A DNA stretch of 64,000 nt from an uncultured Gammaproteobacteria bacterium (GCA_964573235.1 CAZNIV010000001.1:3709-67708); one strand, 5' to 3'; positions 6,410-32,291 are shown, counted from the first letter of the stretch. A program made the numbers and translations. Notes: generated by a model not told the origin, from the sequence alone.

Positions 6410-6429
6410 AGCAGAAATTTTTATAATTC

Positions 6430-7467
6430 TTATTGGGCGGAAGGGATAGAAATATCATTCAAAAGCGCCTCATCTTCTAAAATAACGCCCATACCGCGCA
6501 CCACGCAAGTTTGAGGGTCATCCGCAATGTGCACTGGTATTTGAATGGCGTTAGCAATAAAACGATCCACGCCTTTTAATAACGAGGTGCCACCGGTTAA
6601 AATAACGCCTTTCTGATAAATATCCGCCACCAATTCCGGAGGGGTGGTTTCTAGAGTGGATTTAATCGCATCTACGATCTGACGCACTGATTTATTAATA
6701 GATTGTTGAATCTGAACAGAATTAACATGAACTTCTCTTGGCAAACCACTCAAAATATCACGACCACGCATTTCTATTTCCATCACTTCTTTCAAATCAA
6801 CAGCTGAACCAATTTTCTTTTTAATGTCTTCCGCTACCATTTCACCCAAAACCAAACTAAATTCTTCTCGCGCAAAACGAACAATATCATGATTGAGAGT
6901 TTGACCAGCTACCTTAGAAACTTTCCAATTAACAATGCCATTTAAAGAAATTACCGCAACTTCGGTTAAGCCACCGCCTAAATTAACTACCATATTACCG
7001 CTTGGATCTTGAATAGGAATACGAGCACCAATCGCTGCAGCCATGATATTTTCTACTAAGTAAACTTGCTTAGCGCCAGCCGATAACACCACATCTTCTA
7101 CGGCTTTTTTTTCTACCTCGGTTACATCTAATGGAATACCCACAATAACCCTAGGCTTACCACCAAAAGAAAATTTTTCTGACTGCACTTTTTCAAAAAA
7201 ATATTTAAGCATTTTTTCGGCCACTTCAAAATTAGAAATGACGCCATGCACCAACGGTGAATCAGCTTCAATATGAGGCGGGGTTTTACCCAACATGCGC
7301 CTAGCATCATCACCAACGGCTAAAATTTGGTCGGTGCGATGATTAATCGCTACCACTGATGATTCACTAACTACAATGCCACGATCCCGTTTAAAAATCG
7401 TGGTTTTAGTCGTACCCAAATCCACGCCCAAGTCATGATTAAATTTTCCAAAAAACTTTTTAAACAT
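6430..7467 (-). CDS. mreB: Actin-like rod shape protein MreB (paralog 1)
   Basis: GVDLGTTKT phosphate-1 motif and NLGGGLTEVAVISLNG; full-length homology to MreB. Confidence 0.85.
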   Translation of the reverse strand: MFKKFFGKFNHDLGVDLGTTKTTIFKRDRGIVVSESSVVAINHRTDQILAVGDDARRMLGKTPPHIEADSPLVHGVISNFEVAEKMLKYFFEKVQSEKFSFGGKPRVIVGIPLDVTEVEKKAVEDVVLSAGAKQVYLVENIMAAAIGARIPIQDPSGNMVVNLGGGLTEVAVISLNGIVNWKVSKVAGQTLNHDIVRFAREEFSLVLGEMVAEDIKKKIGSAVDLKEVMEIEMRGRDILSGLPREVHVNSVQIQQSINKSVRQIVDAIKSTLETTPPELVADIYQKGVILTGGTSLLKGVDRFIANAIQIPVHIADDPQTCVVRGMGVILEDEALLNDISIPSAQ

Positions 7468-8123: not shown

Positions 8124-9277
8124 TATAAACCAACCAAGTGTTTTAAACCACCCCAAATACGACCACCATATTTAACCAAGTCACTACATGTAATTATTAC
8201 CACTAAACCCATAATCAAGATAAAACCAATATTATGCGCCATATTTTCCCATTGCTGTTTCATCGCCTTGCCTCTTAATTTTTCTATTATTAAGAAGAGA
8301 ATGCGACCGCCATCTAAGGCTGGCAACGGCAAAATATTAATGACCGCCAAATTCAGCGATAACATCGCCATAAACTGCAATAAATAAATCAATCCTAATT
8401 TAGTTACCTGACCGGTAATAACGGCAATACCAACTGGACCGGCTACATCAGCCGAAACCGAAACCCCGGTAACTAACTTTTTAAACAAATCAAATAAAGC
8501 CGTAAAAATAGCACCAGTTAATACAACTGTGGTTTTCGCACCTTCCCAAATAGCTCGATACCATGGATATTTAACCACGGCAGTGTGTGCCAAATCAACA
8601 CCAATACCAGCGCGACCACCTACATCTTTAACTTCAACTGAAAAGGTTTTTTCTTCAACATCACGCTTAACACTAATTTGTACGCTTTGATCTTTCTTAT
8701 TTACCAAATAATCCCTTAGCATTTGAACGCCGGTGATTTTTTGACCATCAACAAATAATAACTCATCACCCGACTTAATGCCTGCTTTTTCGGCGCCAAA
8801 GCCGGCTACGGCTTGTAAAATTTGCACCTTTTCCTCTTTTAAATATTTACTATCAACCGTTCCATCAACCATCATTGGGGTGCCAACGCCATAACCAATA
8901 GATAATAAAGTAACGCACAACAACACGTTCATAATCACACCTGCAGCCAAAATAACGATCCGTTGCCAAATTGGCTTAGCTGCAAAGCTATCCGCATCTG
9001 GCTTATCTTGACCGTTTTCCCCTTTAATTTTTACAAAACCGCCAATTGGAATCCAATTTAAAGAATATACGATGGTTTTTTCTTCTGGGTTTTTATTACC
9101 CCAAATAAAGCGCCATTTGCCATTAACTTTATAAACCCCACCAATACGCGGTGGTAAACCAAAGCCAAATTCATCAACGCCAGTGCCAAATTTTAGCGCC
9201 GTCCAAAAATGACCAAGCTCATGAACAAAAACGAGCACTGACAATACGAGAAAAAATATTATAATAGTGATAATCAT
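8123..9277 (-). CDS. rseP: RseP-type site-2 protease (M50 zinc metalloprotease with PDZ domain)
   Basis: HELGHF (HExxH) in TM1, a PDZ segment, and C-terminal TM segments. Confidence 0.85.
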   Translation of the reverse strand: MIITIIIFFLVLSVLVFVHELGHFWTALKFGTGVDEFGFGLPPRIGGVYKVNGKWRFIWGNKNPEEKTIVYSLNWIPIGGFVKIKGENGQDKPDADSFAAKPIWQRIVILAAGVIMNVLLCVTLLSIGYGVGTPMMVDGTVDSKYLKEEKVQILQAVAGFGAEKAGIKSGDELLFVDGQKITGVQMLRDYLVNKKDQSVQISVKRDVEEKTFSVEVKDVGGRAGIGVDLAHTAVVKYPWYRAIWEGAKTTVVLTGAIFTALFDLFKKLVTGVSVSADVAGPVGIAVITGQVTKLGLIYLLQFMAMLSLNLAVINILPLPALDGGRILFLIIEKLRGKAMKQQWENMAHNIGFILIMGLVVIITCSDLVKYGGRIWGGLKHLVGL

Positions 9278-9280
9278 GCC

Positions 9281-9832
9281 TTAAATAGTCATTACTTCTT
9301 TTTCTTTTTCTTCACCGATTTTTTTAATCAGATCATTGAACTCCGAAGTTTTTTTATCCAATTCTTCAAATGACTGGAATTTTAAATCCTCGCTAATTTC
9401 TTTTTCTTTTTCCGCGCGCGTAATTTCAGTTCTAATTTCATCTCTTACCTTACGCAAAGCAATTCTCGCCTCTTCCATTTTCTGATGAAGAACCTTAACT
9501 ACCGCTTTACGATTTTCTTCAGTCATCATTGGTAAACTAATACGAATTTTTTCACCTTCATTGACTGGTGATAAGTTCAAATCACTTTCACGAATAGCTG
9601 TTTCAATATTTTTTAAAACAGATTTATCCCAAGGTTGAATTAAAATACAACGAGCCTCAGGCACAGAAATCGAACCCAACTGATTAAGTGGTGTTCTAGC
9701 GCCATAAGCTTCAACTTGAATATTATCCAAAATACTTGGATTAGCCCGACCCGTCTTTAAGGTGCTAATATCGTTTTTAAAATGCTCAATTGCCTTAGTA
9801 AATAAACCTGCATGATCAGTTAAAATACTCAT
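9281..9832 (-). CDS. frr: Ribosome recycling factor
   Basis: 183 aa; full-length Frr-like sequence (ISVPEARCILIQPWD..., C-terminal charged helix). Confidence 0.85.
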   Translation of the reverse strand: MSILTDHAGLFTKAIEHFKNDISTLKTGRANPSILDNIQVEAYGARTPLNQLGSISVPEARCILIQPWDKSVLKNIETAIRESDLNLSPVNEGEKIRISLPMMTEENRKAVVKVLHQKMEEARIALRKVRDEIRTEITRAEKEKEISEDLKFQSFEELDKKTSEFNDLIKKIGEEKEKEVMTI

Positions 9833-9867
9833 AAATTTTCAATTATTTCTAAACCTTACTTAATTAA

Positions 9868-10953
9868 TTACTTACTACTAACCAAAGAATGGGCTCCAAA
9901 GTACATAATATTTGGATAATTTGGATTGATTAATATTCGATTAACCATTCTAGAAAAAGGCAATTTAGCTGAGGACCATGTTTTGCCACCATCTAACGAC
10001 TTAACCAAGGTGGTAGCCGTTGTGTAATATACCTCATTACTATTCTTAGGATTAACCGCTACGGAGTAGATAAGAGATGGCTTAGCGGTGGTTAATAGTG
10101 ATATTAAAGACCAAGTCCGTCCTTGATTATCCGACTTAACCATACTATATTTAGAGGCAACTATCAATGAGCCACGAGTAGCCCGATCAACCACTAAAGA
10201 AACGTACTCCTGACTAGAAAAATATTGTTTTATTCCCTCGCCCATATTGGCCCACGATTGACCCCAGTCAGCTGTTTTATAAATACCACTTTCTTTAGTA
10301 ATGGCATAAATAACACTAGAATCATCTGGGTCCATTACCAAATCAATAAAGCTACTATTTTTAACTGTATAAGCTACATACCAAGACGTGCCACCATTTT
10401 CTGATTTAATAATTTCACCGCCACGATTAGCCACATATAATATAGAGCTATTTTTTATATCAATAGCAATGTCGCTCAATACAATCTTGTCATTTTGATG
10501 ATAATAAACATTATCCCAATTACGGCCACAATCTTTTGATTTTACTACGCGATTACCAACTAAAACATAAATAATACATTTATTGTTTGGGTCCACCGCC
10601 ACCGACTGCACCTGCATCTTGGCAAACTCCGGAAAAGTATTCCAGCTCAAGCCCTCATCCCAACTATAATAAACGCCATTGGCCTCGGTAGCTAAATAAA
10701 TCGCTCGATAGTCAGACGGATCAAAAACCATCCGCCTAATATCTACTCCTGCAATAGAAGCGACTTTTCCGCCAACAACCGGTATAGCTACTCGTTGAGC
10801 AAAGGTTTTTCCACTATCTTGACTACGCCAAATGCCACCATCCGCCCCTGAAGAAGTAGTACCACCACTCCCGCCTAAGCTAACCGTGCAACCCGAAGCT
10901 AATAAAACCAATCCGACTAATAAAAAACTTCCAAACAATCGCCAATATCTCAT
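9868..10953 (-). CDS. BNR/Asp-box repeat lipoprotein (7-bladed propeller; sialidase/Ycf48-like fold)
   Basis: Lipobox LLASGC; seven SxDxGxTW-type repeats (SQDSGKTF, SWDEGLSW, SKDCGRNW, SENGGTSW, TADWGQSW, SDNQGRTW, SLDGGKTW). Confidence 0.8.
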   Translation of the reverse strand: MRYWRLFGSFLLVGLVLLASGCTVSLGGSGGTTSSGADGGIWRSQDSGKTFAQRVAIPVVGGKVASIAGVDIRRMVFDPSDYRAIYLATEANGVYYSWDEGLSWNTFPEFAKMQVQSVAVDPNNKCIIYVLVGNRVVKSKDCGRNWDNVYYHQNDKIVLSDIAIDIKNSSILYVANRGGEIIKSENGGTSWYVAYTVKNSSFIDLVMDPDDSSVIYAITKESGIYKTADWGQSWANMGEGIKQYFSSQEYVSLVVDRATRGSLIVASKYSMVKSDNQGRTWSLISLLTTAKPSLIYSVAVNPKNSNEVYYTTATTLVKSLDGGKTWSSAKLPFSRMVNRILINPNYPNIMYFGAHSLVSSK

Positions 10954-19568: not shown

Positions 19569-21152
19569 TTAAATCAAACTCGTGCCCGTCATTTCTTTTG
19601 GCTGAGGCAAATTCATTACCTTTAAAATGGTTGGCGCCACATCAGATAAAATACCCGATGGCTGAACCAAACTCAAATCGGAACTTGGAGCATCCATGCC
19701 ACCCATCGTCTTGCCTTCCCACTCTTTGCCCACCACTACAAACGGCACCGGATAACTGCTATGTTCTTTATCTATTTCACCAGATTGCAAGTTAATTAAC
19801 TCTTCAGCATTGCCATGATCGGCGGTTAAAAACAAAATGCCATTTTTGGCCAAAACTAGTTCGCTGATTTGCTTAACGCAACCATCTACCACTTCGCACG
19901 CCTTAATGGTCGCTTTTAAATCCCCAGTATGCGCCACCATATCCAAATTAGCAAAATTAATCACGATAAAATCATATTTATCAGCCATAATGGCTTCACA
20001 AGTTTTTTTAGCAATTTCTTTTACTGACATTTCTGGCTTTTCAGCGTAAGAACTTACACGAGGTGACGGCACCAAAATCCTATCTTCACCTTTGAACTCT
20101 TCTTCTAAGCCACCATTAAAAAAGAAAGTGACATGGGCATATTTTTCTGTTTCGGCAATATGTAGTTGTGTTAAACCGGCGTCAGATATTACCTTAGCCA
20201 ATGGATCATGAATCAAATCTTGTTTAAAAGCCACCTCCACTGGCAAGTCTTTTTCATATTCCGTCATCGCCACAAAATACAAATCCTTCAAATATTCGCG
20301 CGGAAATTTTTCAAAACCAGGCAACACAAAAGCCTTAGTAATTTCACGAGCACGATCAGAACGATAATTAAAGAAAATTATGGAGTCGCCAGATTTAACT
20401 TGCGCCACCGGCTTGCCTTTTTTAGTAATGACTACCGGTATAAATTCTTCATCATAAACTTTTTTATCATAAGAAGCCTGAACCGCTTCGGTGGCGTCAT
20501 CAAAATAGTTGGTGGCCTTGCCTTGAGTCATAGCATCATAAGTTAAAGCAATACGCTCCCAATGATTATCGCGATCCATGGCATAAAAACGGCCAGACAA
20601 AGTGGCAATTTGCCCAATCTTATCTTTTTCTATTTTATGCTTAATTTTATTGATCATATCGATGCCAGAATTATACGGCATATCGCGACCATCCAAAAAA
20701 GCATGAATATAAACTCGATTAAATTTTTGCTTTTCACATAAATCTAATAAAGCAAATAAATGATTAAGCGAGCTATGCACCCCACCGGAAGAAGTTAAGC
20801 CCATAATATGCAAATCTCCTTTAGTTTTTTTAGCATGAGTAATAGCCACGACAAATTTTTCATTAACAAAAAAATCGCCACCAGAAATGGCGTGATCAAT
20901 TAATGGTAAATTCTGATAAAGCAACTTTCCTGATCCTAAATTTAAATGACCAACCTCGGAATTACCAAACTCACCCCATGGCAAACCAACAGACTCACCC
21001 GAAGCCTGAAGGGTTAAAGCGGGATAGCTTTTTAATAAATTATTCAGAGCTGGAGTATTAGCCGAAGAAATGGCATTAGAACGTGATAGCGGAGCCACTC
21101 CCCAACCATCAAGAATCAATAATACTACTGGCTTTAATCTCTTATTGGTCAT
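19569..21152 (-). CDS. gpmI: 2,3-bisphosphoglycerate-independent phosphoglycerate mutase (iPGM), copy A
   Basis: LLILDGWG; catalytic Ser motif GNSEVGHLNLG; full-length alkaline-phosphatase-superfamily iPGM. Confidence 0.85.
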   Translation of the reverse strand: MTNKRLKPVVLLILDGWGVAPLSRSNAISSANTPALNNLLKSYPALTLQASGESVGLPWGEFGNSEVGHLNLGSGKLLYQNLPLIDHAISGGDFFVNEKFVVAITHAKKTKGDLHIMGLTSSGGVHSSLNHLFALLDLCEKQKFNRVYIHAFLDGRDMPYNSGIDMINKIKHKIEKDKIGQIATLSGRFYAMDRDNHWERIALTYDAMTQGKATNYFDDATEAVQASYDKKVYDEEFIPVVITKKGKPVAQVKSGDSIIFFNYRSDRAREITKAFVLPGFEKFPREYLKDLYFVAMTEYEKDLPVEVAFKQDLIHDPLAKVISDAGLTQLHIAETEKYAHVTFFFNGGLEEEFKGEDRILVPSPRVSSYAEKPEMSVKEIAKKTCEAIMADKYDFIVINFANLDMVAHTGDLKATIKACEVVDGCVKQISELVLAKNGILFLTADHGNAEELINLQSGEIDKEHSSYPVPFVVVGKEWEGKTMGGMDAPSSDLSLVQPSGILSDVAPTILKVMNLPQPKEMTGTSLI

Positions 21153-21154
21153 AA

Positions 21155-22714
21155 CTACAATAAACTATCTTTAGTCATTAATGGATCTTTTTTAACTCCC
21201 ATTAATTTTAATATCGTTGGCGCCACATTACCCAGGCAACCGCCAGTTTTTAACTGAGTTTTATGATTAAAATCACGACCCACTAAAATAAATGGCACTT
21301 GATTACCTGTGTGTTCCGTAATAATTTCACCGGTTTCTAAATTAAGCATGTACTCTAGATTACCATGATCAGCGGTAATAATCAATGCACCCTTAGCTTT
21401 AAGCACGGCTTGTAACACTTTTTTGACATACTTGTCAACTGCCTCTGCCGCCTTAATTCCAGCCTTAAAATTACCCGTATGCCCTACCATATCCGGACAA
21501 GCAAAATTAGCGGCAATAAAATCATACTTGCGAAGCGCGCCTAAAATTTTAGTCGTAATTTGAGCCGTAGACATCACTGGCTTCAAATCATAAGAATCAA
21601 CCATTGGCGATGGCACCATTACCCGATCCTCGCCATCAATTTTATCAGCATAACCACCATTAAAAAAGTAAGTCATATGAGCATACTTTTCACTCTCGGC
21701 AATATAAATTTGTTTTTTATCTTTTAACGCTAACGGCAAAGTTTCTCTTACATCCTCTGATGGATAAGCAGTATAGATAGTATCCAGATCAGGACCAAAA
21801 TCAGTCATGGCTACAAACAATAAATCTTGCAAAACTTTCTTACGCTTCGGCGCCCCTAAATTTTTACCCTCAAAATCTTTCTGCACAAAAAGCTTCGTTA
21901 ATTGGCGCGCGCGATCAGAACGCAAATTGAAATACACCAGCGCATCTTTATCACTAATACGGGGCAACATCTTATCACCATCATACATAATTACCGGCTC
22001 AATAAATTCATCAGTCACATTGGCATTATACGCTCTAGTAATACCTTCTTGCGGACTATTCCCTTTATGGCCAACCCCAAGAACCATCGCTTCGTAAGCC
22101 TTATTATTCCTATCCCAAGATTTTTTTCGATCCATAGCATAAAAACGACCAATTATAGTGGCAATTTTTTCTTTTGGGGTTAAAAATCTTTCTAAGGCCT
22201 CTACCGCCTTTAAAGCCGAGCGCGGTGGAGAATCACGACCATCAGTAAATAAGTGTAAATAAATATTACCCGTTGTAACGCGCCTAAAAACCATCAAAAG
22301 AGCCATTAAATGATCTGGACTACTGTGTGGACTTTGATCAGTAGACAATAAACCCATTAAATGAATGTTAGATTTATTATTTTCAACATGCTTAATCGCC
22401 GCCAAAAAAGCCGGGTTTTTAAAAAATTCACCCGTGCTAATTTGCTTAGAAATTTTTACCACATCCTGATCCACAATTCGGCCAGCGCCAAGATTAAGAT
22501 GACCCGCTTCAGAATTACCCACCTGCCCTAACGGCAAACCAACAGGCAAACCAGAAGCTTCCAAAGTAACCCATGGGTATTTACGATACAAACCATTGAT
22601 CGTTGGGGTTTTGGCCATGAAAATCGCATTAGACGCATCCGATTTCCCCAATCCCCAACCATCAAGAATTAGTAAAACAACTTTTTTATAAATTGGCGCT
22701 TTAGCTTTAGCCAT
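21155..22714 (-). CDS. gpmI: 2,3-bisphosphoglycerate-independent phosphoglycerate mutase (iPGM), divergent copy B
   Basis: LLILDGWG; GNSEAGHLNLG; roughly 40% identity to copy A; placed 2 nt upstream of copy A. Confidence 0.8.
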   Translation of the reverse strand: MAKAKAPIYKKVVLLILDGWGLGKSDASNAIFMAKTPTINGLYRKYPWVTLEASGLPVGLPLGQVGNSEAGHLNLGAGRIVDQDVVKISKQISTGEFFKNPAFLAAIKHVENNKSNIHLMGLLSTDQSPHSSPDHLMALLMVFRRVTTGNIYLHLFTDGRDSPPRSALKAVEALERFLTPKEKIATIIGRFYAMDRKKSWDRNNKAYEAMVLGVGHKGNSPQEGITRAYNANVTDEFIEPVIMYDGDKMLPRISDKDALVYFNLRSDRARQLTKLFVQKDFEGKNLGAPKRKKVLQDLLFVAMTDFGPDLDTIYTAYPSEDVRETLPLALKDKKQIYIAESEKYAHMTYFFNGGYADKIDGEDRVMVPSPMVDSYDLKPVMSTAQITTKILGALRKYDFIAANFACPDMVGHTGNFKAGIKAAEAVDKYVKKVLQAVLKAKGALIITADHGNLEYMLNLETGEIITEHTGNQVPFILVGRDFNHKTQLKTGGCLGNVAPTILKLMGVKKDPLMTKDSLL

Positions 22715-22720
22715 TTTTTA

Positions 22721-23977
22721 TTAAGCTAATTTTAATTCTTCAGCAATTTCCATCAAACGATTATATTTAGTCACCCTTTCAGCGCGACATAAAGAACCAG
22801 TCTTAATATATTCAGCGTTAGAAGCGACTGCTAAATCAGCGATAAAATCATCGACAGTTTCACCTGAACGATGAGAAACAGCGATACTATATTTATGTTT
22901 CTGTGCTAATTTCATACATTCAACAGTTTCGGAAACGGTACCAATTTGATTTAACTTAATCAAAATAGAATTAGCAATATGCTTTTTAATACCTTCAGCT
23001 AAAATTTTTGGATTGGTCACAAACAAATCATCACCAACCAAGCCAATTTTATCGCCCAAAACTTTAGTCAACATAGCCCAACCAGTCCAATCACTTTCAC
23101 CTAAACCATCTTCCAAAGTTTCAATTGGATATTTTTCAGTCCAACCCTTATACATTTCTACCATTTCAGCCGAAGTGCGCTGTTTGCCATCCGCCTTCAT
23201 GTCATAAATATCATTTTCATGAAATTCGGAAGCGGCCGCATCAATAGAAATACGCACATCAGAACCAAATTTATAACCAGCAGTTTCTACGGCTTTAGCA
23301 ATAGTTTGCAAGGCCATTTCATTACCCGCTAATTTAGGTGCATAACCACCCTCGTCACCAACAGTAATTGGAAAACCATCCGCTTTTAAAATCTTTTTTA
23401 AGGTATGAAAAATCTCCGCGCCACAACGAACCGCTTCGTGAATATTTGTTTGTTGCGGAGTAACCATAAATTCCTGAATATCAATAGACCAACCGGCATG
23501 AGCGCCACCATTCATAATATTCATCATTGGCTTAGGAAACTTCCAACCATCCAATTTCTTCCAATATTTTTCTCTCAAATAAGCGTATAATGGCTTTTTA
23601 CTAGCAATCGCTGCGGCACGACAAACGGCCAAAGACACACCCAACATCGCATTGGCTCCAAGATTGCCCTTATTATCCGTGTTATCCAACTCAATCATTA
23701 AGGCATCAATCTCTTTTTGCTTTTTAGGATTCATTCCAATTAAGCGTGGAGCGATAATATTATTAACATTAGAAACTGCTTTTAAAACACCCAAACCATT
23801 GTAACGCGCTTTATCACCGTCACGCAATTCTAATGCTTCACGGCTACCAGTAGAGGCTCCCGAAGGCACACCAGCCCAAGCTTTGATTTTATTAGACAAA
23901 ACTACTTCTACTTCTACCGTTGGGTTGCCACGAGAATCTAAAATTTCTCTGGCAGTAATCTTTGCAATGGTTGCCAT
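22721..23977 (-). CDS. eno: Enolase
   Basis: 418 aa; canonical enolase motifs (SIDIQEFM, IKLNQIGT, SHRSGETED-like SHRSGETVD). Confidence 0.9.
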   Translation of the reverse strand: MATIAKITAREILDSRGNPTVEVEVVLSNKIKAWAGVPSGASTGSREALELRDGDKARYNGLGVLKAVSNVNNIIAPRLIGMNPKKQKEIDALMIELDNTDNKGNLGANAMLGVSLAVCRAAAIASKKPLYAYLREKYWKKLDGWKFPKPMMNIMNGGAHAGWSIDIQEFMVTPQQTNIHEAVRCGAEIFHTLKKILKADGFPITVGDEGGYAPKLAGNEMALQTIAKAVETAGYKFGSDVRISIDAAASEFHENDIYDMKADGKQRTSAEMVEMYKGWTEKYPIETLEDGLGESDWTGWAMLTKVLGDKIGLVGDDLFVTNPKILAEGIKKHIANSILIKLNQIGTVSETVECMKLAQKHKYSIAVSHRSGETVDDFIADLAVASNAEYIKTGSLCRAERVTKYNRLMEIAEELKLA

Positions 23978-24813: not shown

Positions 24814-26004
24814 CTAAAACTTAATTAATTTAGATAAACCCGGTAATTCTTTACCTTCTAAAAACTCTAACATCGCTCCGCCACCAGTAGAAATAAAATT
24901 GAATTTCTTTTCTAACCCCATTTTGCGAATCATTTGCACTGTTTCACCACCACCAACAATCTTCTCCCCCTTGGCTTTGGCTAACAATTTAATAATTGCC
25001 TCGGTGCCTTTTGTAAAAGTTGGATTTTCAATCAATCCCATCGGGCCATTCCAAACAATCATCTTAGCTTGTTTAATGATACTAGCATAAAGCTGGATAG
25101 TATCCGGACCAATATCTAGAATTATTTCATTTTCTTTTACTTTTGCCAAGGCACCCAATCGCCCATGACTACTTTTAAAACTTTTAGCCATTAAACCATC
25201 AACTGGCACCACTAATTTATTTTCCGTTAGCTCAATGTTTTTAATTTCTTCTTCCATGTCTTTTTCTACTAGCGACTTACCTACCGAAACGCCCTTAATC
25301 AACAAAACGGTATTGGCCAAAGCGCCACCAAGCAAAATTTTGCTCGCCACCTTTAAAAAATTCTTAATTACCTTAATTTTAGTGGAAATTTTTGCCCCAC
25401 CAATAATCGCCACCATCGGCTTTTTGGGTTTATATAATGCCTTAGATAAATTAACCACCTCTGATTCTAACAATAAACCGGCATAACTAGGCAAAAATTC
25501 CTGAATCGTAGAAACCGAAGCTTGGGCGCGATGATCAACCGCAAAAGCGTCATTAACATAAATATCAGCCAAACTAGCTAATTGTTTCGCAAACTCCTGA
25601 TCAGCTTGCTCTTCACGCGCATCAAAACGAATATTTTCTAACATCAAAATATCACCATTTTTCATTTTAGCGATCAATCTATTGGTTTCTTCTCCAATAA
25701 TTACTGAACTCTTTTTAACTTTTTTCTTTAATAAATTGGATAATCTTTTAACCACCGGTGTTAAGCGCAAATCTTCTACTACTTTACTATCTGGTCGCCC
25801 CAAGTGGGCCATCAATATTAATTTTGCCCCTTTTTTAGCCAAAAATTTAAGTGTCGGCAAGGTTTTTACAATGCGATAATCTTCACTTTTGCCCACCTTT
25901 CCGTCTTTAGTTAGTGGCACATTAAAATCCACGCGAATCAATACGCGCTTCCCTTTCCAATTTTTAACTTGTTTTATAGACTTTATTTTCATAGCGTTTA
26001 ACAT
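24814..26004 (-). CDS. pgk: Phosphoglycerate kinase
   Basis: 396 aa; RVDFNVP, GGGA, GGGETV motifs. Confidence 0.9.
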   Translation of the reverse strand: MLNAMKIKSIKQVKNWKGKRVLIRVDFNVPLTKDGKVGKSEDYRIVKTLPTLKFLAKKGAKLILMAHLGRPDSKVVEDLRLTPVVKRLSNLLKKKVKKSSVIIGEETNRLIAKMKNGDILMLENIRFDAREEQADQEFAKQLASLADIYVNDAFAVDHRAQASVSTIQEFLPSYAGLLLESEVVNLSKALYKPKKPMVAIIGGAKISTKIKVIKNFLKVASKILLGGALANTVLLIKGVSVGKSLVEKDMEEEIKNIELTENKLVVPVDGLMAKSFKSSHGRLGALAKVKENEIILDIGPDTIQLYASIIKQAKMIVWNGPMGLIENPTFTKGTEAIIKLLAKAKGEKIVGGGETVQMIRKMGLEKKFNFISTGGGAMLEFLEGKELPGLSKLIKF

Positions 26005-26035
26005 TTTATCATAAATTTAACCAAAAACGAAAGGG

Positions 26036-26293
26036 TTACTTATCCCCCTCAATCTCTCTTAAAATCCAACTATGCCCTGTAATCTTATTAATTTTTAACA
26101 CTATCCCCTCAGCTAAAGTACCTTTAGATAACATATCCACATTAAATTTAACATTTTCTGGTAACACTTCTTCGCCATGTTCTACGATGGAACCCAAATC
26201 TACTGTCGCCGATTTAACGTTATTTAAACTATTTTTTTCAGCATGCTCTAAAATAGTTTTAAAAATAATATCTGCTAAGTGAAAATCGTGCAT
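26036..26293 (-). CDS. hypA: HypA-like nickel metallochaperone N-domain protein lacking the zinc-finger domain
   Basis: Probable start MHDFHL (internal Met of the track ORF 26036..26329). It aligns to the HypA N-terminal domain (MHE...KHGAKRVT..V.LKIGAFS...LAFCF..V..GSVAEG..L). No CxxC...CxxC follows, and the next gene starts 31 nt downstream. Confidence 0.5.
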   Translation of the reverse strand: MHDFHLADIIFKTILEHAEKNSLNNVKSATVDLGSIVEHGEEVLPENVKFNVDMLSKGTLAEGIVLKINKITGHSWILREIEGDK

Positions 26294-26304
26294 AATAATT
26301 TTAA

Positions 26305-27591
26305 TTAATGAGTAGCACAAGAAATGCAAGGATCATAAGCACGAATCAAAGCGCGGATTTTTAGTGATCGTTTTTTGGCATCCATCTTAATCACATCTGG
26401 TAAATAAGTTTTAATATCTTCTTCTAGATTACGCAGAAAAGAACAAGTTGGTGTAATGATATCACAATTAGTGATAAAACCATTAGCGTCAATTTCATAA
26501 TGATGATACAAGGTGCCTCGAGGAGCTTCTACTGCCGCCGCCCCAATACATAATTTACCAAGTGGATTAGCCCCGGCCACGATACCCAGTTCTGCTAACC
26601 GACTAGCTTCGGGCTTAATTTCTGCCACCAAGTGTGTTAATAATTTACCCACCTCTTCTACGGCATGCAAAACCTCAATTGCTTGCGCGGTAATATTACA
26701 GAAACTATTGTATTGTGGTAATTCCCAATTTAAACTTTTTAAAACTCCTGCCGCCAAAGGATTTAGTTTTTGATGATTCAAATTTATTCTAGCTAACGCG
26801 CCAACCATAAACGGTTCGCCCTTTAGTGTAGCTGATTTAGCATGACGATACGGTTCTTCAATTTCTTTAATATTCTTAGCAAAGTTAACCGCTGGCACTT
26901 TTTTAAAACCACCCAAATTCAAATCACCATCATAAATAGCATAATTATGATCGGCCGATAACGCCACATGTTTAGTGGTACGAGAAAATTTAGGGTATTT
27001 AATTTTTAACACTAAGTGAATTAAGGATAAGGAGTCTTTCAATACCGCTTGATATTGACCCAAAAGCACTTGCAATTCCTCTTTATTTGGTGTCACCTTA
27101 AATCCACCCACTTCGGAATTAATCGGATGAATAGCGCGACCACCAATCACTTCAATAATCTTTAGCGCCCAATCACGAACGCGCATCGCACTTTGAGTTT
27201 CTTTAGGATATTGTTTAATTAATTGCAAATCATTTTCAATATCAAAAAAATCAGCTAACGATAAAAAAAATAAATGAAGCGCATGTGAGTGAATAATTTG
27301 CGCCATCGACATAGCCTGTCTGAGCTTAACCGTTTGTTCACTAACTTTAATATCTAAAGCATTTTCAATTGCCTTAATTGAGGTTAAATTATGCACCACC
27401 GGACAAATACCACAAATACGCGCCGTGACAATTGGCGCCTCTGTAAAATGACGACCAACCAAAATCCCCTCGATCAACCTCGTGCCCTCAGCCGTTAACA
27501 ACTTAGCCGATTTAACATCGCCATTCATAATCTCAGCCACAAAATCAGTGTGACCTTCCATTTTACCAATATGATTGATTTGGATTTTCAT
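26305..27591 (-). CDS. hydA: [NiFe]-hydrogenase large (alpha) subunit, group 3 (3b-like)
   Basis: L1 motif RICGICPVVH near the N-terminus; L2 motif DPCISCATH is the extreme C-terminus, so there is no cleavable extension; 428 aa. Confidence 0.85.
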   Translation of the reverse strand: MKIQINHIGKMEGHTDFVAEIMNGDVKSAKLLTAEGTRLIEGILVGRHFTEAPIVTARICGICPVVHNLTSIKAIENALDIKVSEQTVKLRQAMSMAQIIHSHALHLFFLSLADFFDIENDLQLIKQYPKETQSAMRVRDWALKIIEVIGGRAIHPINSEVGGFKVTPNKEELQVLLGQYQAVLKDSLSLIHLVLKIKYPKFSRTTKHVALSADHNYAIYDGDLNLGGFKKVPAVNFAKNIKEIEEPYRHAKSATLKGEPFMVGALARINLNHQKLNPLAAGVLKSLNWELPQYNSFCNITAQAIEVLHAVEEVGKLLTHLVAEIKPEASRLAELGIVAGANPLGKLCIGAAAVEAPRGTLYHHYEIDANGFITNCDIITPTCSFLRNLEEDIKTYLPDVIKMDAKKRSLKIRALIRAYDPCISCATH

Positions 27592-27594
27592 ATC

Positions 27595-27849
27595 TTAAAT
27601 AAAAATTTTAATAACTAAAAGTCCAACCACTATTCCCAACACATTAAACAACATATCCAAACTACTTTCTTTTAAATCATTAGTACGCATAAACTGATCA
27701 CTAATTTCTTTAGTCAAACCAACCGCCAAAGAAAATAAAACCGCCGCCAAATAACTACCAGAAATCGCATAAACCGTACTTGACATCATTGAAGAAATTA
27801 AAAAATGCGCTACCTTGTCATAATTATTTGTCAGCCTTAGGTAAAACAT
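27595..27849 (-). CDS. Small (84 aa) two-TM membrane protein encoded between the hydrogenase small and large subunit genes
   Basis: It fills the 232-nt gap between the delta and alpha genes. It has two hydrophobic helices. The start may be an internal Met, which would reduce the 26-nt overlap with the delta gene. Confidence 0.4.
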   Translation of the reverse strand: MFYLRLTNNYDKVAHFLISSMMSSTVYAISGSYLAAVLFSLAVGLTKEISDQFMRTNDLKESSLDMLFNVLGIVVGLLVIKIFI

Positions 27850-28654
27850 TTATTTTCTTTTTAATCACTTTTTTAGTTGCCTTCTGTTCTTTAGACCATT
27901 CTTGCATGATTGTATCTTTAGCGCCAAATACTTCCATTACGCGATCAACTTGTTTTTTTGTAAATTTAGACAATAAATAAGCCATCAAATTACTCACTTG
28001 CGCGCCCTCAAATAACCCGCGACAACCCCAACAAGCCTGTTTACTCTTCAAGCACACTGCTTCACAGCCACCCAAGGTTATTGGCCCTAAGCAAATTTGA
28101 CCTTTTTGCAATAAACACTCATAACCTAATTTTTGACATTCGTAACATACCGGATTTTGCGAAATTCTTGGTTTACGCCCAGCCAATAACTGATAACCAA
28201 TTTCCATAAACTCTTTACCGGTAATTGGGCAGCCAGGAATAGTCAAATCTACTTTCACAAAATTATCCACTTCTTTGATATCTGGATTAGGCACCTTAAT
28301 ATCATGATAAACTTGTTTAATCGTCTTTTTCTTATCGCCATAGTTTTTCATCTCCCAAACACCGCCTAGCGCCGCGCAATTGCCCAGCACTACCAAAAAA
28401 TCAGATTGCTGACGTAATAATTTTAATAGTTTAATATTTTCTTCTGTCACCGGATTACCTTCCACAAAACAAATATCAAACCGACGCGCCGTCATTGGCT
28501 CATCTTCAATTAATCTAAATTCTTCCACCTCAAAATTTTTCAACCAACTTAAAAATCTTGGACCTTCATCCAACATAGCAAATTGGCACCCTTCACAAGA
28601 GGTTAAGCCCACAATAGCAATTTTTAATTTTGTAGTTTTATTTTTTGCCTTCAT
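27824..28654 (-). CDS. hydD: [NiFe]-hydrogenase small (delta) subunit, group 3
   Basis: SCEGCQ proximal-cluster motif, GNCAALGG, IPGCPI, and a C-terminal Cys-rich region for the medial/distal clusters. Confidence 0.8.
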   Translation of the reverse strand: MKAKNKTTKLKIAIVGLTSCEGCQFAMLDEGPRFLSWLKNFEVEEFRLIEDEPMTARRFDICFVEGNPVTEENIKLLKLLRQQSDFLVVLGNCAALGGVWEMKNYGDKKKTIKQVYHDIKVPNPDIKEVDNFVKVDLTIPGCPITGKEFMEIGYQLLAGRKPRISQNPVCYECQKLGYECLLQKGQICLGPITLGGCEAVCLKSKQACWGCRGLFEGAQVSNLMAYLLSKFTKKQVDRVMEVFGAKDTIMQEWSKEQKATKKVIKKKINVLPKADK

Positions 28655-28692
28655 ACTATATATATTTTAGCAAATTTTTACACTTTAGGCGA

Positions 28693-29952
28693 CTAAATTT
28701 TCACCTTCAACTCTTCTTCAAGCATCTCATAGCTTAAATCCCCTTTAAATAGTGCCCATTTTTCCATTTTTTTCTCCTGATCATAGAATTTATTCTCATA
28801 AATTTCATAATCGGCGCGATACTTTTCTGGCGTTAAATTAAGCATGATCGCATTAGCGCCAGCCATAAACGCCTTATGCCGAAATTGCTCACCATAAAGC
28901 GTTTCCATGGCAGTAGTAACGGGTATTCTGGCTTTAGGTAAAACTAAGCGAATAGTGGCAATAATTTTTAACATCATTTCTTCTGGTAAAATTATCTCAT
29001 CAACCAACGGGGTATTTTTCGATGGCACTAATGGCCCAAATGACGGCATGAAAGCATTAAACCTTTTTAGCGTCAAAATATCTACCGCTAAATCAGTTAC
29101 TGATTGCTTAGGTAAGCCAGCGATAAAACCAGTGGCAATGGTATAACCTAATTTTAAACAACCATCAATTAATGCACGGCGATCGGCACCATCTTCGCCT
29201 TGATGCAAATCAGTATACAATCTATCATTCATTTCTTCGTATCTAATTAAAACGCCATTAGCACCAGCTTTTTTTAATTGCTGATAAACTTCCAAAGAGC
29301 GACCACCAATACTCAAATATAAAAACGCGCGAAAACGCTTTTTAATTTCTGTCACTAAACTTATTAAATCAGCGTCAGAATAAGTATAATCTTCCCCGGA
29401 TTGCAATACTAAAATTTTATAACCTTTATCCTCTACCGCTTCTCGCACCGCTTCAATAATTTCTTCGCTCGTCATACGATAACGCTTTACCGCCTGATTA
29501 CCACATCTAATGCCACAATACTGACAATTACTAGCGCAATAATTAGAAAACTCAATCAAACCATGCACGCAAATATGATCTTTAATACTAGTTTTTCTGG
29601 TAATATTGGCCTCAGAATACAACTCATTTAAATCAGCTTCGGATTTTAAGGTTAATAAATATTCAATATCTGCCTGTTGCAATTTGTCTGACTTAGCTTT
29701 AGCTAAGATATTTTTTAATTCTTGATTTTGACTGGGCTCGGCCAATGGATAAGCTTTTAGCAACGCAAAAATTTCTTCTGCCTCTGAAGCGGAAATTTTT
29801 TTCAGTAAAAAATCATTGGTAAATAAAACCCAGTCACCGATCTGTAAGTCTTCTGGCGTTAACATTTTTACTTCTTTTTCTCGGCCACTCACTTCTAATT
29901 TGGCCGAAACGCCAGAAACCGACAAGACCTTTGCCGGTAAAGTCAAACACAT
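28693..29952 (-). CDS. Fusion protein: N-terminal HypC/HupF-like domain (MCLTLP...) + HydE/HmdB/BioB-like radical SAM domain
   Basis: Residues 1-70 align with HypC (MCLTLPAKV...GDWVLFTNDF versus E. coli MCIGVPGQI...GQWVLVHVGF). Residues ~120-419 carry CASNCQYCG (CxxxCxxC), GLIEFSNYC, KRYRMT and LQSGED, strongly resembling HydE as remembered. One uninterrupted ORF. Confidence 0.8.
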   Translation of the reverse strand: MCLTLPAKVLSVSGVSAKLEVSGREKEVKMLTPEDLQIGDWVLFTNDFLLKKISASEAEEIFALLKAYPLAEPSQNQELKNILAKAKSDKLQQADIEYLLTLKSEADLNELYSEANITRKTSIKDHICVHGLIEFSNYCASNCQYCGIRCGNQAVKRYRMTSEEIIEAVREAVEDKGYKILVLQSGEDYTYSDADLISLVTEIKKRFRAFLYLSIGGRSLEVYQQLKKAGANGVLIRYEEMNDRLYTDLHQGEDGADRRALIDGCLKLGYTIATGFIAGLPKQSVTDLAVDILTLKRFNAFMPSFGPLVPSKNTPLVDEIILPEEMMLKIIATIRLVLPKARIPVTTAMETLYGEQFRHKAFMAGANAIMLNLTPEKYRADYEIYENKFYDQEKKMEKWALFKGDLSYEMLEEELKVKI

Positions 29953-29961
29953 AAATTTAAA

Positions 29962-30108
29962 TTACATTCTGTTTTTACGAAAAATGGTAGCCAAACCCAA
30001 AACGATCAAAGCAATTGGCCAAATCAAATCCCAATTGATCGCTGGCACTACGCCCAAATACTTGAGCAAGAAAACCAAACCCACAACTACCAATGCTACT
30101 CCCAACAT
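29962..30108 (-). CDS. Candidate small (48 aa) hydrophobic membrane peptide between hydG and the hypC-rSAM fusion (not in the supplied ORF track)
   Basis: Manual translation gives MLGVALVVVGLVFLLKYLGVVPAINWDLIWPIALIVLGLATIFRKNRM. The 168-nt gap in this otherwise tightly packed operon has no other explanation. Confidence 0.3.
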   Translation of the reverse strand: MLGVALVVVGLVFLLKYLGVVPAINWDLIWPIALIVLGLATIFRKNRM

Positions 30109-30120
30109 ATATTTAAAAAA

Positions 30121-30942
30121 TTAATTAAATTTAATATAATCTTTAATTTCACTCCAGGTGAATACCGGGCCATCTTTACATACATAATACGGGCCAATAG
30201 CGCAATGTTGGCAAACACCAACCCCGCAATACATTTTCTTTTCTAATGACACATAAATATTTTCATCTTTTATGCCTTTGGCCTGCAATTGTTCTACCAC
30301 AAACTTATACATCACTGGCGGACCAACAATAATGGCAATAGAATTAGAAGTAATAACGCGTTTAGCCAATAAATTAGTAATTAAGCCTTTATCCCCTTTC
30401 CAATCTTTTTCTGGCTTATCTAAAGTTAAATTAAACTCGCTATGCTTTTTCCAGTAATCATGCTCAGATTTAAAAAGTATTGAGTGCTGATTTAAGCAGC
30501 CATAAAAAATTTGCATCACCGTATTATCTAATCGGCCGGCCATATAATCAACAATAATTGGCCTAAGTGGAATAAAACCACAACCGCCACCAATTACAAT
30601 CAACGGTAAATCTTTAGCCTTTTCCACGTCAAAACCGTTGCCAAACGGGCCACGAATATCTACCTCATCACCTACTATTAAATTACTGAATTTATGCGTC
30701 AATAAACCCACGTCACGAATAGCTAACTCAAAATAATTTTTTGCCTCAAACGGCGACGAACAAATACTAATCGGACACTCGCCCCAACCCGGCAAACCCA
30801 CTTGCATAAATTGGCCATGAATAAAAGCAAAGTTTTTTTGCTGCTTAGTATCAATAAATTTTAAACGCCACAAAATTGTATCGGGCGACAAGCACTCAAC
30901 GGCAACAATTTTAGCTTTTTGCGGTTGATAAATATTGATCAT
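30121..30942 (-). CDS. hydG: Sulfhydrogenase/3b-hydrogenase gamma-like subunit (FAD/NAD(P)-binding oxidoreductase with C-terminal 2Fe-2S; PyrK/AsrB-like)
   Basis: FNR-like fold with IVIGGGCGFIPLRPI and a C-terminal CGVGVCQHC...C cluster motif. Confidence 0.75.
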   Translation of the reverse strand: MINIYQPQKAKIVAVECLSPDTILWRLKFIDTKQQKNFAFIHGQFMQVGLPGWGECPISICSSPFEAKNYFELAIRDVGLLTHKFSNLIVGDEVDIRGPFGNGFDVEKAKDLPLIVIGGGCGFIPLRPIIVDYMAGRLDNTVMQIFYGCLNQHSILFKSEHDYWKKHSEFNLTLDKPEKDWKGDKGLITNLLAKRVITSNSIAIIVGPPVMYKFVVEQLQAKGIKDENIYVSLEKKMYCGVGVCQHCAIGPYYVCKDGPVFTWSEIKDYIKFN

Positions 30943-31904
30943 AGATTTTTAAGCACCTCATTGATTTTAATTCCCACTGGGCAAACATTACTGCAACGAT
31001 TACAACTAACACAACCCGGCAAGCCGTATTCTTTAGGAATGCGCACAAATTTATGGGTATACCAAAAATAAATCTTTTGTTTAGCGGTATCTAGCGATTT
31101 ATGCCCGCCAGCCACCAAAGAAAAATCATTATAAAAGCAATTACCCCACTTGCGAACGCGACCGGTATTATTCACATCATTTTTATCTTCTAAATCAAAG
31201 CAAAAACAAGTCGGGCATACAATAGAACACTTACCACAAGCGATGCAAGTTTTGCCCAATTCTTCCCAAATTGGCTGATCAAAAGACTGATCAACTTTCT
31301 TTTTTAACAATAACATGCGCTTATCTTGGCCTTCTTCGGCAATCGGCCCAGCAAATTCTACGTGCTGATATTTTTTGGCACCACGCTTTTCTAAAAATAA
31401 CTGACCTTTTTCTGATCCGGAATATAAATCATAACCATCATTAACTCTGGCCATCAAAAAGATATCAAACACTAAGTGCTCTAAAAAGTTTTCTTCCCAA
31501 TTATGGGTAAAGACTTTATATTTTTTAAATTCCTCGGGCGCGCCCGTACCTAATCCCACTATTAAAGTACGACGACGACGTTCTTGATAATATTTATCCT
31601 TAGAAAATACCTGCTCCCACAAAGCCAACGCCTTTAAATCCAAAACATTAATGCCCACCAAAGAAAATTTTGGCCAAACACGAGTTTCTTCTTTTAAATT
31701 ACCGCCACTAATGCCAAATAAGCGTTCCTCAGCCGGAATTAGCCATTGCTTAAAAGAATTAACTGGCATTTCGGCCGACCAATCAATATTTTTTAAATCT
31801 GTTACTGGCGCTACCTTAAGTACACCATCAATTCTTTGAGGTGCTATAATCTGATATTCTTTAGAAATGGCTAAAATTAAATTTTGTAATTCGGTTTTAT
31901 TCAT
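30939..31904 (-). CDS. hydB: Sulfhydrogenase/3b-hydrogenase beta-like subunit (4Fe-4S ferredoxin domain protein; AsrA-like)
   Basis: CIACGKCSIVCP and CVSCNRCSNVCP motifs; overlaps hydG by 4 nt. Confidence 0.7.
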   Translation of the reverse strand: MNKTELQNLILAISKEYQIIAPQRIDGVLKVAPVTDLKNIDWSAEMPVNSFKQWLIPAEERLFGISGGNLKEETRVWPKFSLVGINVLDLKALALWEQVFSKDKYYQERRRRTLIVGLGTGAPEEFKKYKVFTHNWEENFLEHLVFDIFLMARVNDGYDLYSGSEKGQLFLEKRGAKKYQHVEFAGPIAEEGQDKRMLLLKKKVDQSFDQPIWEELGKTCIACGKCSIVCPTCFCFDLEDKNDVNNTGRVRKWGNCFYNDFSLVAGGHKSLDTAKQKIYFWYTHKFVRIPKEYGLPGCVSCNRCSNVCPVGIKINEVLKNL

Positions 31905-31967: not shown

Positions 31968-32291
31968 CTACTTATTTAAATTTAAAATAAACCAATACCC
32001 ACCACCAGTTGCGTAACGCGGACCAGGCCCCTCTTTAACTAGGATATACTCTTTTTCTGAACCTAAATACTCTCTTACACTATCCACTTGACTTGGTATG
32101 GCATCAATTAAAATATCTCCGCTCTCCCCCAAAGGCAAATGTCCTTGATTAATCCATTCTTTTAATTCAAATACCAAAGTACCTAAGCCCGTTAAAATTT
32201 TTAACTCTTCTCGTAATTTAATAACGGCTTCTTTAATTCTATTCTCCTCTGATAATTCCGGTCCAGTAACCTCTCTTTTAAATGGCTTCAT
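31968..32291 (-). CDS. Hypothetical 107-aa protein upstream of the hydrogenase operon
   Basis: ORF with unbiased, coding-like composition; no family recognised. Confidence 0.4.
   Translation of the reverse strand: MKPFKREVTGPELSEENRIKEAVIKLREELKILTGLGTLVFELKEWINQGHLPLGESGDILIDAIPSQVDSVREYLGSEKEYILVKEGPGPRYATGGGYWFILNLNK

Follow-up and report, generated by a model that had tools for sequence, protein, structure and literature searches.

How is a [NiFe]-hydrogenase matured if its operon encodes a fusion of the chaperone HypC with a radical S-adenosylmethionine (radical-SAM) enzyme, and if HypD, HypE and HypF are not found in the surroundings? The question is raised by eight genes at positions 26036-31904, all on the minus strand, of a 64,000-nucleotide (nt) stretch of DNA, given as one strand, from an uncultured bacterium (GCA_964573235.1, CAZNIV010000001.1:3709-67708); we call this whole stretch the window. 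Four of the genes encode the subunits of a group-3b-type enzyme, and four others are interleaved. We give about even weight to the reading that this is the Patescibacteria (candidate phyla radiation, CPR) version of the cytoplasmic, NAD(P)-linked group-3b [NiFe]-hydrogenase operon, with its own unconventional maturation kit. We likewise hold it an evenly balanced proposition, drawn from genomic evidence only, that a radical-SAM route, leading from HydG via a HydE domain to the fused HypC, replaces HypD, HypE and HypF in providing the Fe(CO)(CN)x unit.

HypA to HypF are taught as universally required for the maturation of [NiFe]-hydrogenases, and the chief open question in the field concerns how the CO ligand is obtained under anoxic conditions. 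A 2025 review lists six required Hyp proteins, describes the anaerobic CO source as unknown and leaves radical-SAM enzymes unmentioned (PMC12134894). In the canonical scheme, the large subunit receives Fe(CN)2CO from HypC, which bears it on Cys2, and HypD, HypE and HypF are needed to synthesize this unit (PMC12134894). The [FeFe] maturase HydG makes a Fe(CO)2(CN)-cysteine synthon from tyrosine, which HydE uses as substrate (PMC11826987; PDB titles). The full-text literature that we searched, with subscription-only papers mostly outside it, holds no description of HypC-HydE fusions, or of HydE or HydG serving [NiFe] enzymes or CPR hydrogenases. All parts of the operon come from known families; the novelty lies in their combination.

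A covalent fusion joins HypC to a HydE-type radical-SAM enzyme

The fusion protein begins with an oligonucleotide-binding (OB) fold of the HypC type (residues 1-65, with Cys2), followed by a helical linker, a HydE-type TIM barrel with the motif CASNCQYC and a BATS domain (Table 1). Its HypC part starts with MCLTLPA and exceeds the HupF_HypC (PF01455) cutoff of 28.5 bits with a score of 56. Of the 27 members of the family that were aligned, 26 have Cys2, the exception (P0043) being truncated at the N-terminus. In E. coli, HypC His51 is implicated in Fe binding with HypD. The fused HypC has Thr (or Ala) at this column; free HypCs encoded beside fusions retain the His.

The radical-SAM part reaches 251.3 bits with the NCBIfam model of HydE (TIGR03956, cutoff 254.6), compared to 147 bits for PylB and 92 for BioB, and only weakly matches HmdB (TIGR03957, 1e-15). 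Among solved proteins the fusion is closest to TmHydE (E=3e-54), followed by PylB (1e-24) and, for the HypC part, by entry 2z1c (9e-7). An AlphaFold2 model of the whole protein (predicted local distance difference test score 90, predicted template modelling score 0.90) predicts one compact unit with high confidence. Its top fold matches, with target-normalised TM-scores of 0.85-0.91, are TmHydE entries, some of which contain bound Fe(CO)2(CN) 'complex B'. A HydE identity of the radical-SAM domain is supported by both sequence and predicted fold.

At least 119 homologous protein clusters share the same architecture of HypC plus radical-SAM domain (all but one of the best 120; 43-58% identity), and the cysteines of the CX3CX2C motif are invariant in the family alignment. 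The source databases assign these homologues to Patescibacteria metagenome-assembled genomes (MAGs) and label them 'HydE', '[FeFe] hydrogenase maturase' or 'biotin synthase'. The fusion of the window departs from columns with at least 90% conservation at 3 sites, which is the family median; decay of the fusion after the loss of HydG was considered and rejected on this ground.

HypD, HypE and HypF are absent around the fusions, whereas HydG is a frequent neighbor

The original prediction that the window contains no hypB, hypD, hypE, hypF or maturation protease gene was borne out. Using tblastn, the E. coli proteins HypB, HypD, HypE, HypF and HycI had no hit in the 64 kb stronger than E=0.4, while the same queries matched HypB, HypD, HypE and HypF at 1e-63 to 1e-136 in a positive control. 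This control is one canonical hyp locus of Acidimicrobiaceae, the sole return of a scan of a genome collection with the single fusion protein; the E. coli queries also gave HypC (1e-11) and HypA (1.5e-5) there, and HypC-HypD-HypF and HypE were detected. A metagenome scan with the family alignment yielded 213 encoding stretches, 80 loci were fetched, and more loci were added through exact-protein look-ups. The counts given here cover 72 non-redundant fusion loci (832 kb) or, for flanking genes, the 22 loci with at least 6 kb on both sides. HypD, HypE and HypF occur in none of the 22 and within ±10 kb of none of the 72 fusions. HypD, the partner of HypC, is hence missing from the window and from all 72 surroundings, the scope of this statement being the loci only.

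One explanation is that canonical HypD, HypE and HypF, perhaps with HypB, are encoded elsewhere in these genomes, and that the fusion is an accessory, hydrogenase-specific chaperone which, for example, supplies the CO ligand. We consider this rather unlikely. The visible genome amounts to 64 kb, hyp genes are often unlinked from the structural genes, and some loci do possess a free-standing HypC with the canonical His. Moreover, lineages that have no HydG nearby still maintain the fusion under normal constraint. However, hypC and hypD normally form a tight pair, as they do in the control, and yet the 832 kb around 72 fusions hold not one match to HypD, HypE or HypF. The fused HypC also lacks the equivalent of His51, and where HypA, HypB and an endopeptidase are encoded nearby, they co-localize with the fusion and HydG at the very place where hypCDEF would normally be.

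A HydG gene lies immediately downstream of the fusion gene in 27 of the 53 loci with enough downstream sequence. In the 22 well-flanked loci we counted a [NiFe] large subunit 10 times, HydG 9 times, HypA 8 times, and HypB and an endopeptidase once each. The closest relative (L001, 58% identity of the fusion) has the same operon, with a HydG gene of 455 amino acids (aa) directly after the fusion (6037-7404; TIGR03955 score 593 bits, cutoff 312); the same adjacency is seen in L011, L014, L016, L022-L024, L060, L080, L088 and others. HydG is strongly conserved: the best 120 listed of thousands of homologue matches reach down to 59% identity only. Two HydG proteins (P0215, P0230) that are ~61% identical to those of CPR bacteria are labelled Candidatus Micrarchaeota (DPANN archaea), and the module may be shared between two groups of ultra-small symbionts, CPR and DPANN.

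In a neighbor-joining tree of the fusions, the clade of the window is always embedded in [NiFe] operons. Within this clade, loci with HydG (L001, L011, L013, L014, L016) are interspersed with loci without it (the window, L008-L010, L012, L017-L019, L021), indicating repeated loss or relocation of hydG, and most other branches of the tree have HydG. This history bears on a further explanation, in which the HydE-like domain now does work unrelated to CO and CN, such as modifying the large subunit or handling sulfur or iron, or is kept only as a relic scaffold for HypC. The repeated disappearance of hydG from the operon would agree with such a shift, as would the score just under the HydE equivalog cutoff and the diverse chemistry of the HydE relatives PylB, BioB and HmdB. 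Nevertheless, we find it improbable: HydE is the closest match by a wide margin in sequence and fold, the CX3CX2C motif is preserved along with almost every family-invariant position, and having HydG as a neighbor seems to be the ancestral state of the family.

Beyond the CPR-like loci, contigs that do not look like CPR (GC content 43-46%) carry the fusion-HydG pair in a hyp-like cluster with full-length HypA and HypB (L037 3568-9735; L034 2387-7000; L045 5974-9660). The L034 cluster comprises an endopeptidase of the HyaD/HybD type, full-length HypA, HypB, HypC-HydE and HydG. The L037 cluster adjoins a hydrogenase whose best family matches are models of the [NiFeSe]/periplasmic type, under their cutoffs. 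Such contexts indicate that the module is restricted neither to 3b enzymes nor to CPR bacteria. L088 comes from a MAG that carries the label Deltaproteobacteria; here, genes for a free HypC, the fusion and HydG lie opposite a 3b operon.

The fusion and the HydG of its relatives might alternatively mature an [FeFe]-hydrogenase that is encoded elsewhere, the position in a [NiFe] operon being incidental or a matter of mere co-regulation. HydE and HydG are known as [FeFe] maturases only, the databases name the proteins accordingly, and the fusion is not always found beside a [NiFe] enzyme, as some loci discussed below illustrate. In contrast, HypC, to which the enzyme is fused, is a chaperone specific to [NiFe] large subunits, and the fusion gene lies between [NiFe] structural genes in many lineages. 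A crude motif scan of the 865 open reading frames (ORFs) of at least 150 aa in the loci found neither a HydF-like ORF (N-terminal GTPase plus CxH...CxxC) nor [FeFe] H-cluster motifs at any locus, and six annotated neighborhoods contain no Pfam domains of HydF or [FeFe]-hydrogenase. We therefore see little chance for this explanation.

A radical-SAM route may supply the Fe(CO)(CN)x unit

We propose that the Fe(CO)(CN)x unit of this enzyme would be made via radical-SAM chemistry of the [FeFe] type and not by HypD, HypE and HypF from carbamoyl phosphate. HydG, encoded directly after the fusion in sister lineages, would convert tyrosine into an Fe-carbonyl-cyanide-cysteine synthon, which the HydE domain would then process. 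The fused HypC domain would take over the iron unit on its N-terminal Cys2 and hand it to the apo-large subunit. Nickel would be inserted by the zinc-less HypA without HypB, whereby a conserved EHGEE insertion possibly offers an extra ligand. In the lineage of the window, hydG would have left the operon, being either located elsewhere in the genome or lost. The earlier idea of an alternative maturation-and-anchoring module within the structural genes is thereby kept in its maturation half, as the best reading, aided by the HydG neighbors, the absence of HypD, HypE and HypF near 72 loci and the large subunit without a tail; the anchoring half is dropped, with nothing behind it except the hydrophobicity of two small proteins.

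The proposed route can be placed next to the known maturation systems. It shares with the E. coli Hyp system (HypA-F plus endopeptidase) the HypC-type OB-fold with the essential N-terminal Cys and the HypA nickel domain with MH(D/E). Yet, in the window HypB, HypD, HypE, HypF and the protease are missing, with no HypD, HypE or HypF at related loci either, HypC is joined to a radical-SAM enzyme and has no counterpart of His51, and HypA lacks its zinc domain. In comparison with the [FeFe] maturases HydE, HydG and HydF, the radical-SAM domain is HydE-like in sequence and fold and the relatives encode a full-score HydG downstream. Here, however, the surroundings are those of a [NiFe] operon, HydE forms one protein with HypC, neither HydF nor an [FeFe]-hydrogenase is nearby, and the window is without HydG. 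A precedent for enzymes of the BioB/HydE family that serve a hydrogenase other than [FeFe] is given by HmdB/HcgA of the [Fe]-hydrogenase (Hmd), although the similarity of the fusion to these is much weaker than to HydE and no Hmd or hcg genes are present. HypX, which synthesizes CO for [NiFe] enzymes aerobically, likewise stands outside the core Hyp set as an additional enzyme providing a diatomic ligand, but it belongs to an unrelated, formyl-tetrahydrofolate-dependent family and acts alongside HypCDEF rather than replacing them.

Several observations weigh against the proposed route. There is no HydG in the 64-kb window, so the pathway is incomplete at this locus, and the closest HydG-less relatives are without HydG within ±10 kb as well. 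About one third of the well-flanked loci are 'orphans', where hydrogenase and HydG are both missing nearby; one clade accounts for most of these. The radical-SAM domain falls just short of the HydE equivalog cutoff. In addition, the product of HydG carries two CO and one CN, versus one CO and two CN at the [NiFe] site, and the chemistry would need to differ. Finally, HypD, HypE, HypF, HydF or an [FeFe]-hydrogenase may be encoded elsewhere in the genome, outside the loci searched. In HydG-less lineages the fusion alone may suffice, or the iron synthon may come from another source, conceivably the host cell of these episymbionts; the [NiFe] site so formed might even differ in its CO/CN stoichiometry.

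The orphan loci deserve separate mention. Most fall in a separate monophyletic clade with neither HydG nor hydrogenase within 10 kb (L039, L046, L052, L053, L059, L063, L064, L067, L072, L082, L086); L089 and L090 are orphans too. Several fusions of this clade are longer, such as P0086 (460 aa), which has an insertion after the HypC domain. Orphan fusions may have a different or uncoupled role.

The structural subunits belong to a 3b-type enzyme

All four subunits of the heterotetramer are encoded in the window and are intact, with sulfhydrogenase subunits as best or near-best NCBIfam matches (Table 1). The gamma subunit scores 224 bits with PRK08345 and 2e-57 with ShyC. The beta subunit is 58% identical to the product of the first operon gene of L001, and the small subunits of both loci share 72% identity. 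In the large subunit both metal-binding motifs, RICGICPVVH (RxCGxC) and DPCISCATH (DPCxxC), are intact. Its best solved relatives are the alpha subunit of Pyrococcus furiosus sulfhydrogenase I (PfSHI; 9e1j, 7.5e-57), with an alignment that spans both motifs, and Thermococcus kodakarensis HyhL (TkHyhL; 5yxy). These two rank ahead of Mvh/Vhu, NAD-reducing (Hox-type) and Frh enzymes, a ranking that is best-hit evidence only, since equivalog cutoffs are missed.

The group-3b enzymes of P. furiosus (SHI and SHII) and T. kodakarensis (HyhBGSL) have the same four subunit types in the same order (beta, gamma, delta, alpha), whereas the operon of the window has four extra genes interleaved. With 235 bits compared to a cutoff of 700, the window enzyme scores far under the Thermococcales equivalogs, indicating that it represents a distant bacterial branch. 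A second difference concerns the C-terminus of the large subunit. The stop codon (window positions 26305-26310) directly follows the His of DPCISCATH, leaving no C-terminal extension at all, and the large subunits of the CPR relatives terminate at the same His. The match to the 428-residue archaeal chains stops at residue 424, from which it follows that the archaeal precursors carry four extra residues. Without an extension, no endopeptidase step is needed, which accounts for the missing protease gene in the window.

HypA and two small membrane proteins recur in the same slots

The gene described originally as encoding only the N-terminal domain of HypA does lack the zinc domain, but its start had been put at TTG 26329; the ATG at 26293 is the most likely start, as all homologues that were read begin with MHD. 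Alignment with full-length HypAs shows that a zinc finger of ~34 residues (2x CxxC) is cleanly excised and the C-terminal beta-strand kept. The window protein has no Cys at all. It retains the nickel-binding domain with an MHD motif, a conservative change from MHE, and the EHGEE insertion, which is 7 aa long and conserved in the short form. Versus the equivalog model TIGR00100 it reaches 30.6 bits (cutoff 88.1). The short form comprises 72 protein clusters, all of 75-102 aa, from Patescibacteria, Parcubacteria and Buchananbacteria MAGs.

The 48-aa protein consists only of a transmembrane hairpin with two hydrophobic segments and has no LiaF output domain. Its gene lies 9 nt upstream of the fusion gene, and homologues occupy the same slot, directly upstream of the fusion, in other members of the window's clade (L001, L008, L011-L021, L087).

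The 84-aa protein carries the motifs DKxxHF ... KE..DQ ... ES..D...N.LG and matches only the C-terminal half of the VanZ profile; it appears better described as the member of an own family of ~80 aa than as VanZ. Its gene overlaps the small-subunit gene by 26 nt and stops 3 nt before the large-subunit gene. It had looked like a lineage-specific accident, as tblastn on the fetched loci was empty, a view overturned by an exhaustive HMMER search of 1.84 billion representatives. This search gave 24 distant homologues of 74-113 aa, bar one spurious match to a short stretch of a 1211-aa protein. The closest (P0314, 41% identity) is encoded at the equivalent place, between the two [NiFe] subunits, on three contigs: its gene overlaps that of the small subunit, and a gene for a 102-aa acidic protein and then the large-subunit gene come next. 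The ORF has also been called as a gene in MAG GCA_037133135.1.

The original prediction of a non-canonical layout with four interleaved genes thus describes something real and conserved. Comparison of gene order in related genomes gave no plain four-gene order with unconserved inserts; instead all four extras recur. The zinc-less HypA, the 48-aa protein and the fusion are found in the same slots across many independent assemblies, and the 84-aa protein on three other contigs. Each of the four inserts is a conserved part of the operon in at least some of the clade.

Gene content around this core varies. Relatives carry two methyltransferase-like genes with an N-terminal transmembrane helix, one of ~170 aa after the FAD subunit and one of ~185 aa after the large subunit (L012/L087 9340-9852, 13368-13925; equivalents in L008-L011, L016, L018, L019, L021), of class I and with a weak likeness to the archaeal protein-lysine N-methyltransferase NF041081; the window has neither. 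An acidic, helical protein of ~90-110 aa from no known family is encoded between the small and large subunit genes in relatives (L008 13446-13727, L011 12935-13231, L022 9053-9313, L021 13402-13722, L097 1728-2036). It is missing in the window, where only the 84-aa membrane protein fills this slot. An unusual partner for a hydrogenase is seen in L009, where a porphobilinogen-synthase-like gene (9113-10000; 266 bits, slightly short of the cutoff) sits between the FAD subunit and methyltransferase genes and the fusion. Small GIY-YIG nuclease genes are present in or near the operons (L001 9710-10015, between large subunit and hypA; L021 18056-18322; L090 14406-14657), which hints at the passage of mobile elements, a possible source of the variation in gene content. 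The operon of the window is among the most streamlined versions in the family.

Operon layout and genomic setting

Scans with Pfam and NCBIfam confirmed eight co-oriented ORFs, with the positions and domains that had been described from the sequence (Table 1). From 5' to 3' the order is hydB-like, hydG-like, the 48-aa ORF, the HypC-HydE-like fusion, the small subunit, the 84-aa ORF, the large subunit and hypA.

Table 1. Position and family matches of the operon genes and adjacent elements in the window.
Feature	Position	Strand	Family matches and remarks
hydB/shyB-like iron-sulfur (beta) subunit, 321 aa	30939..31904	-	Fer4_22 97 bits; NCBIfam ShyB 7e-33, HydB 3e-32, AsrA 3e-27
hydG/shyC-like FAD/NAD(P)-binding + 2Fe-2S (gamma) subunit, 273 aa	30121..30942	-	NAD_binding_1, FAD_binding_6, DHODB_Fe-S_bind
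LiaI/LiaF-TM-like mini-protein with two transmembrane segments, 48 aa	29962..30108	-	PF18917 35.8 bits, PF22570 36.5 bits (cutoffs 27)
HypC-HydE-like radical-SAM fusion, 419 aa	28693..29952	-	HupF_HypC + Radical_SAM + BATS
[NiFe] small (delta) subunit, 276 aa	27824..28654	-	Oxidored_q6 75.7 bits; HydD 2e-43, ShyD 7e-43
Mini VanZ-like protein with two transmembrane segments, 84 aa	27595..27849	-	VanZ (PF04892) 19 bits, below cutoff 30.1; YfiM 24 bits
[NiFe] large (alpha) subunit, 428 aa	26305..27591	-	NiFeSe_Hases 149 bits; ShyA 2e-69
Zinc-domain-less HypA, 85 aa, starts MHD	26036..26293	-	PF01155 32.3 bits (cutoff 28.9), profile positions 1-70 of 112
Terminator-like hairpin + T-run	26028..26051	-	overlaps hypA stop codon, upstream of pgk
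pgk (context)	24814..26004	-	then SIMPL, enolase, two iPGM genes

An artefact of assembly or gene calling is scarcely credible as the origin of this layout. The source is indeed metagenome-assembled and two of the ORFs are very short. Nevertheless, six independently assembled fragments (JGI, ENA, NCBI) are 99.97-100% identical over every junction from hydB to pgk, the same order recurs in many divergent assemblies, and both short ORFs have homologues in the same slots.

Within the operon the genes are separated by -4 (the overlap of the gamma-subunit gene with hydB), 12, 9, 38, -26, 3 and 11 nt, and hypA is separated from pgk by 31 nt. The tight junctions originally noticed (-26 to 38 nt) are confirmed, but a single transcript does not follow from them: the whole window is tightly packed (median same-strand gap 9 nt; 36 of 45 gaps at most 40 nt), and spacing alone consequently does not establish co-transcription. 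Spacing as a proof of one transcript was rejected for this reason. The further claim that this transcript runs straight into pgk is unsupported too, given this spacing and the terminator-like hairpin between hypA and pgk. As the window contains 7 terminator-like sites versus 7.6 in shuffled sequence, such sites are not enriched, and the hairpin is only a caution against assuming read-through.

Downstream of the operon, pgk and a SIMPL gene are followed by enolase and two tandem paralogues of iPGM (window 19569-23977). This hyd-pgk-SIMPL-eno-iPGM synteny is kept, with the same downstream order in L087 and L001, the latter having pgk and SIMPL in common with the window; in other CPR loci, the gene for glyceraldehyde-3-phosphate dehydrogenase comes after hypA. 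Upstream, the operon is flanked by rmuC and a 107-aa ORF (31968-32291), the latter situated between rmuC and hydB and 63 nt upstream of hydB. This ORF has no Pfam or NCBIfam match and no counterpart was detected among the relatives examined. The ~5.8 kb past the right end of the window encode a sigma factor of the extracytoplasmic function (ECF) type, secE, nusG, L11, L1, a deaminase of the cytidine/deoxycytidylate type and coaE, and hold no hyp or hyd genes. Nearly all genes in window positions 1-64000 are on the minus strand, the GC content is ~36%, and the GC skew is negative (about -0.15 to -0.3) up to ~50 kb and then fades to near zero.

Implications

The glycolytic neighbors fit a role of the hydrogenase as a redox valve for NAD(P)H. 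Based on this neighborhood, the enzyme probably vents NAD(P)H derived from the adjacent lower-glycolysis genes as H2.

With a HypC-radical-SAM fusion, an adjoining HydG and never HypD, HypE or HypF nearby, this family of operons offers a concrete and testable alternative for where the CO ligand comes from. As a broader and more tentative proposal, Patescibacteria and some other anaerobes could use a tyrosine-derived radical-SAM route that is independent of HypD, HypE and HypF, a third maturation logic bridging [FeFe]- and [NiFe]-hydrogenases. The labels '[FeFe] hydrogenase maturase' and 'biotin synthase', given by automated annotation, may meanwhile mislead metabolic reconstructions. If the proposed route is true, two hydrogenase maturation systems would be linked evolutionarily, and the combination of no protease, no HypB and a short HypA could yield a compact maturation kit for heterologous expression. 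It would simultaneously explain how genome-reduced CPR bacteria can afford a hydrogenase.

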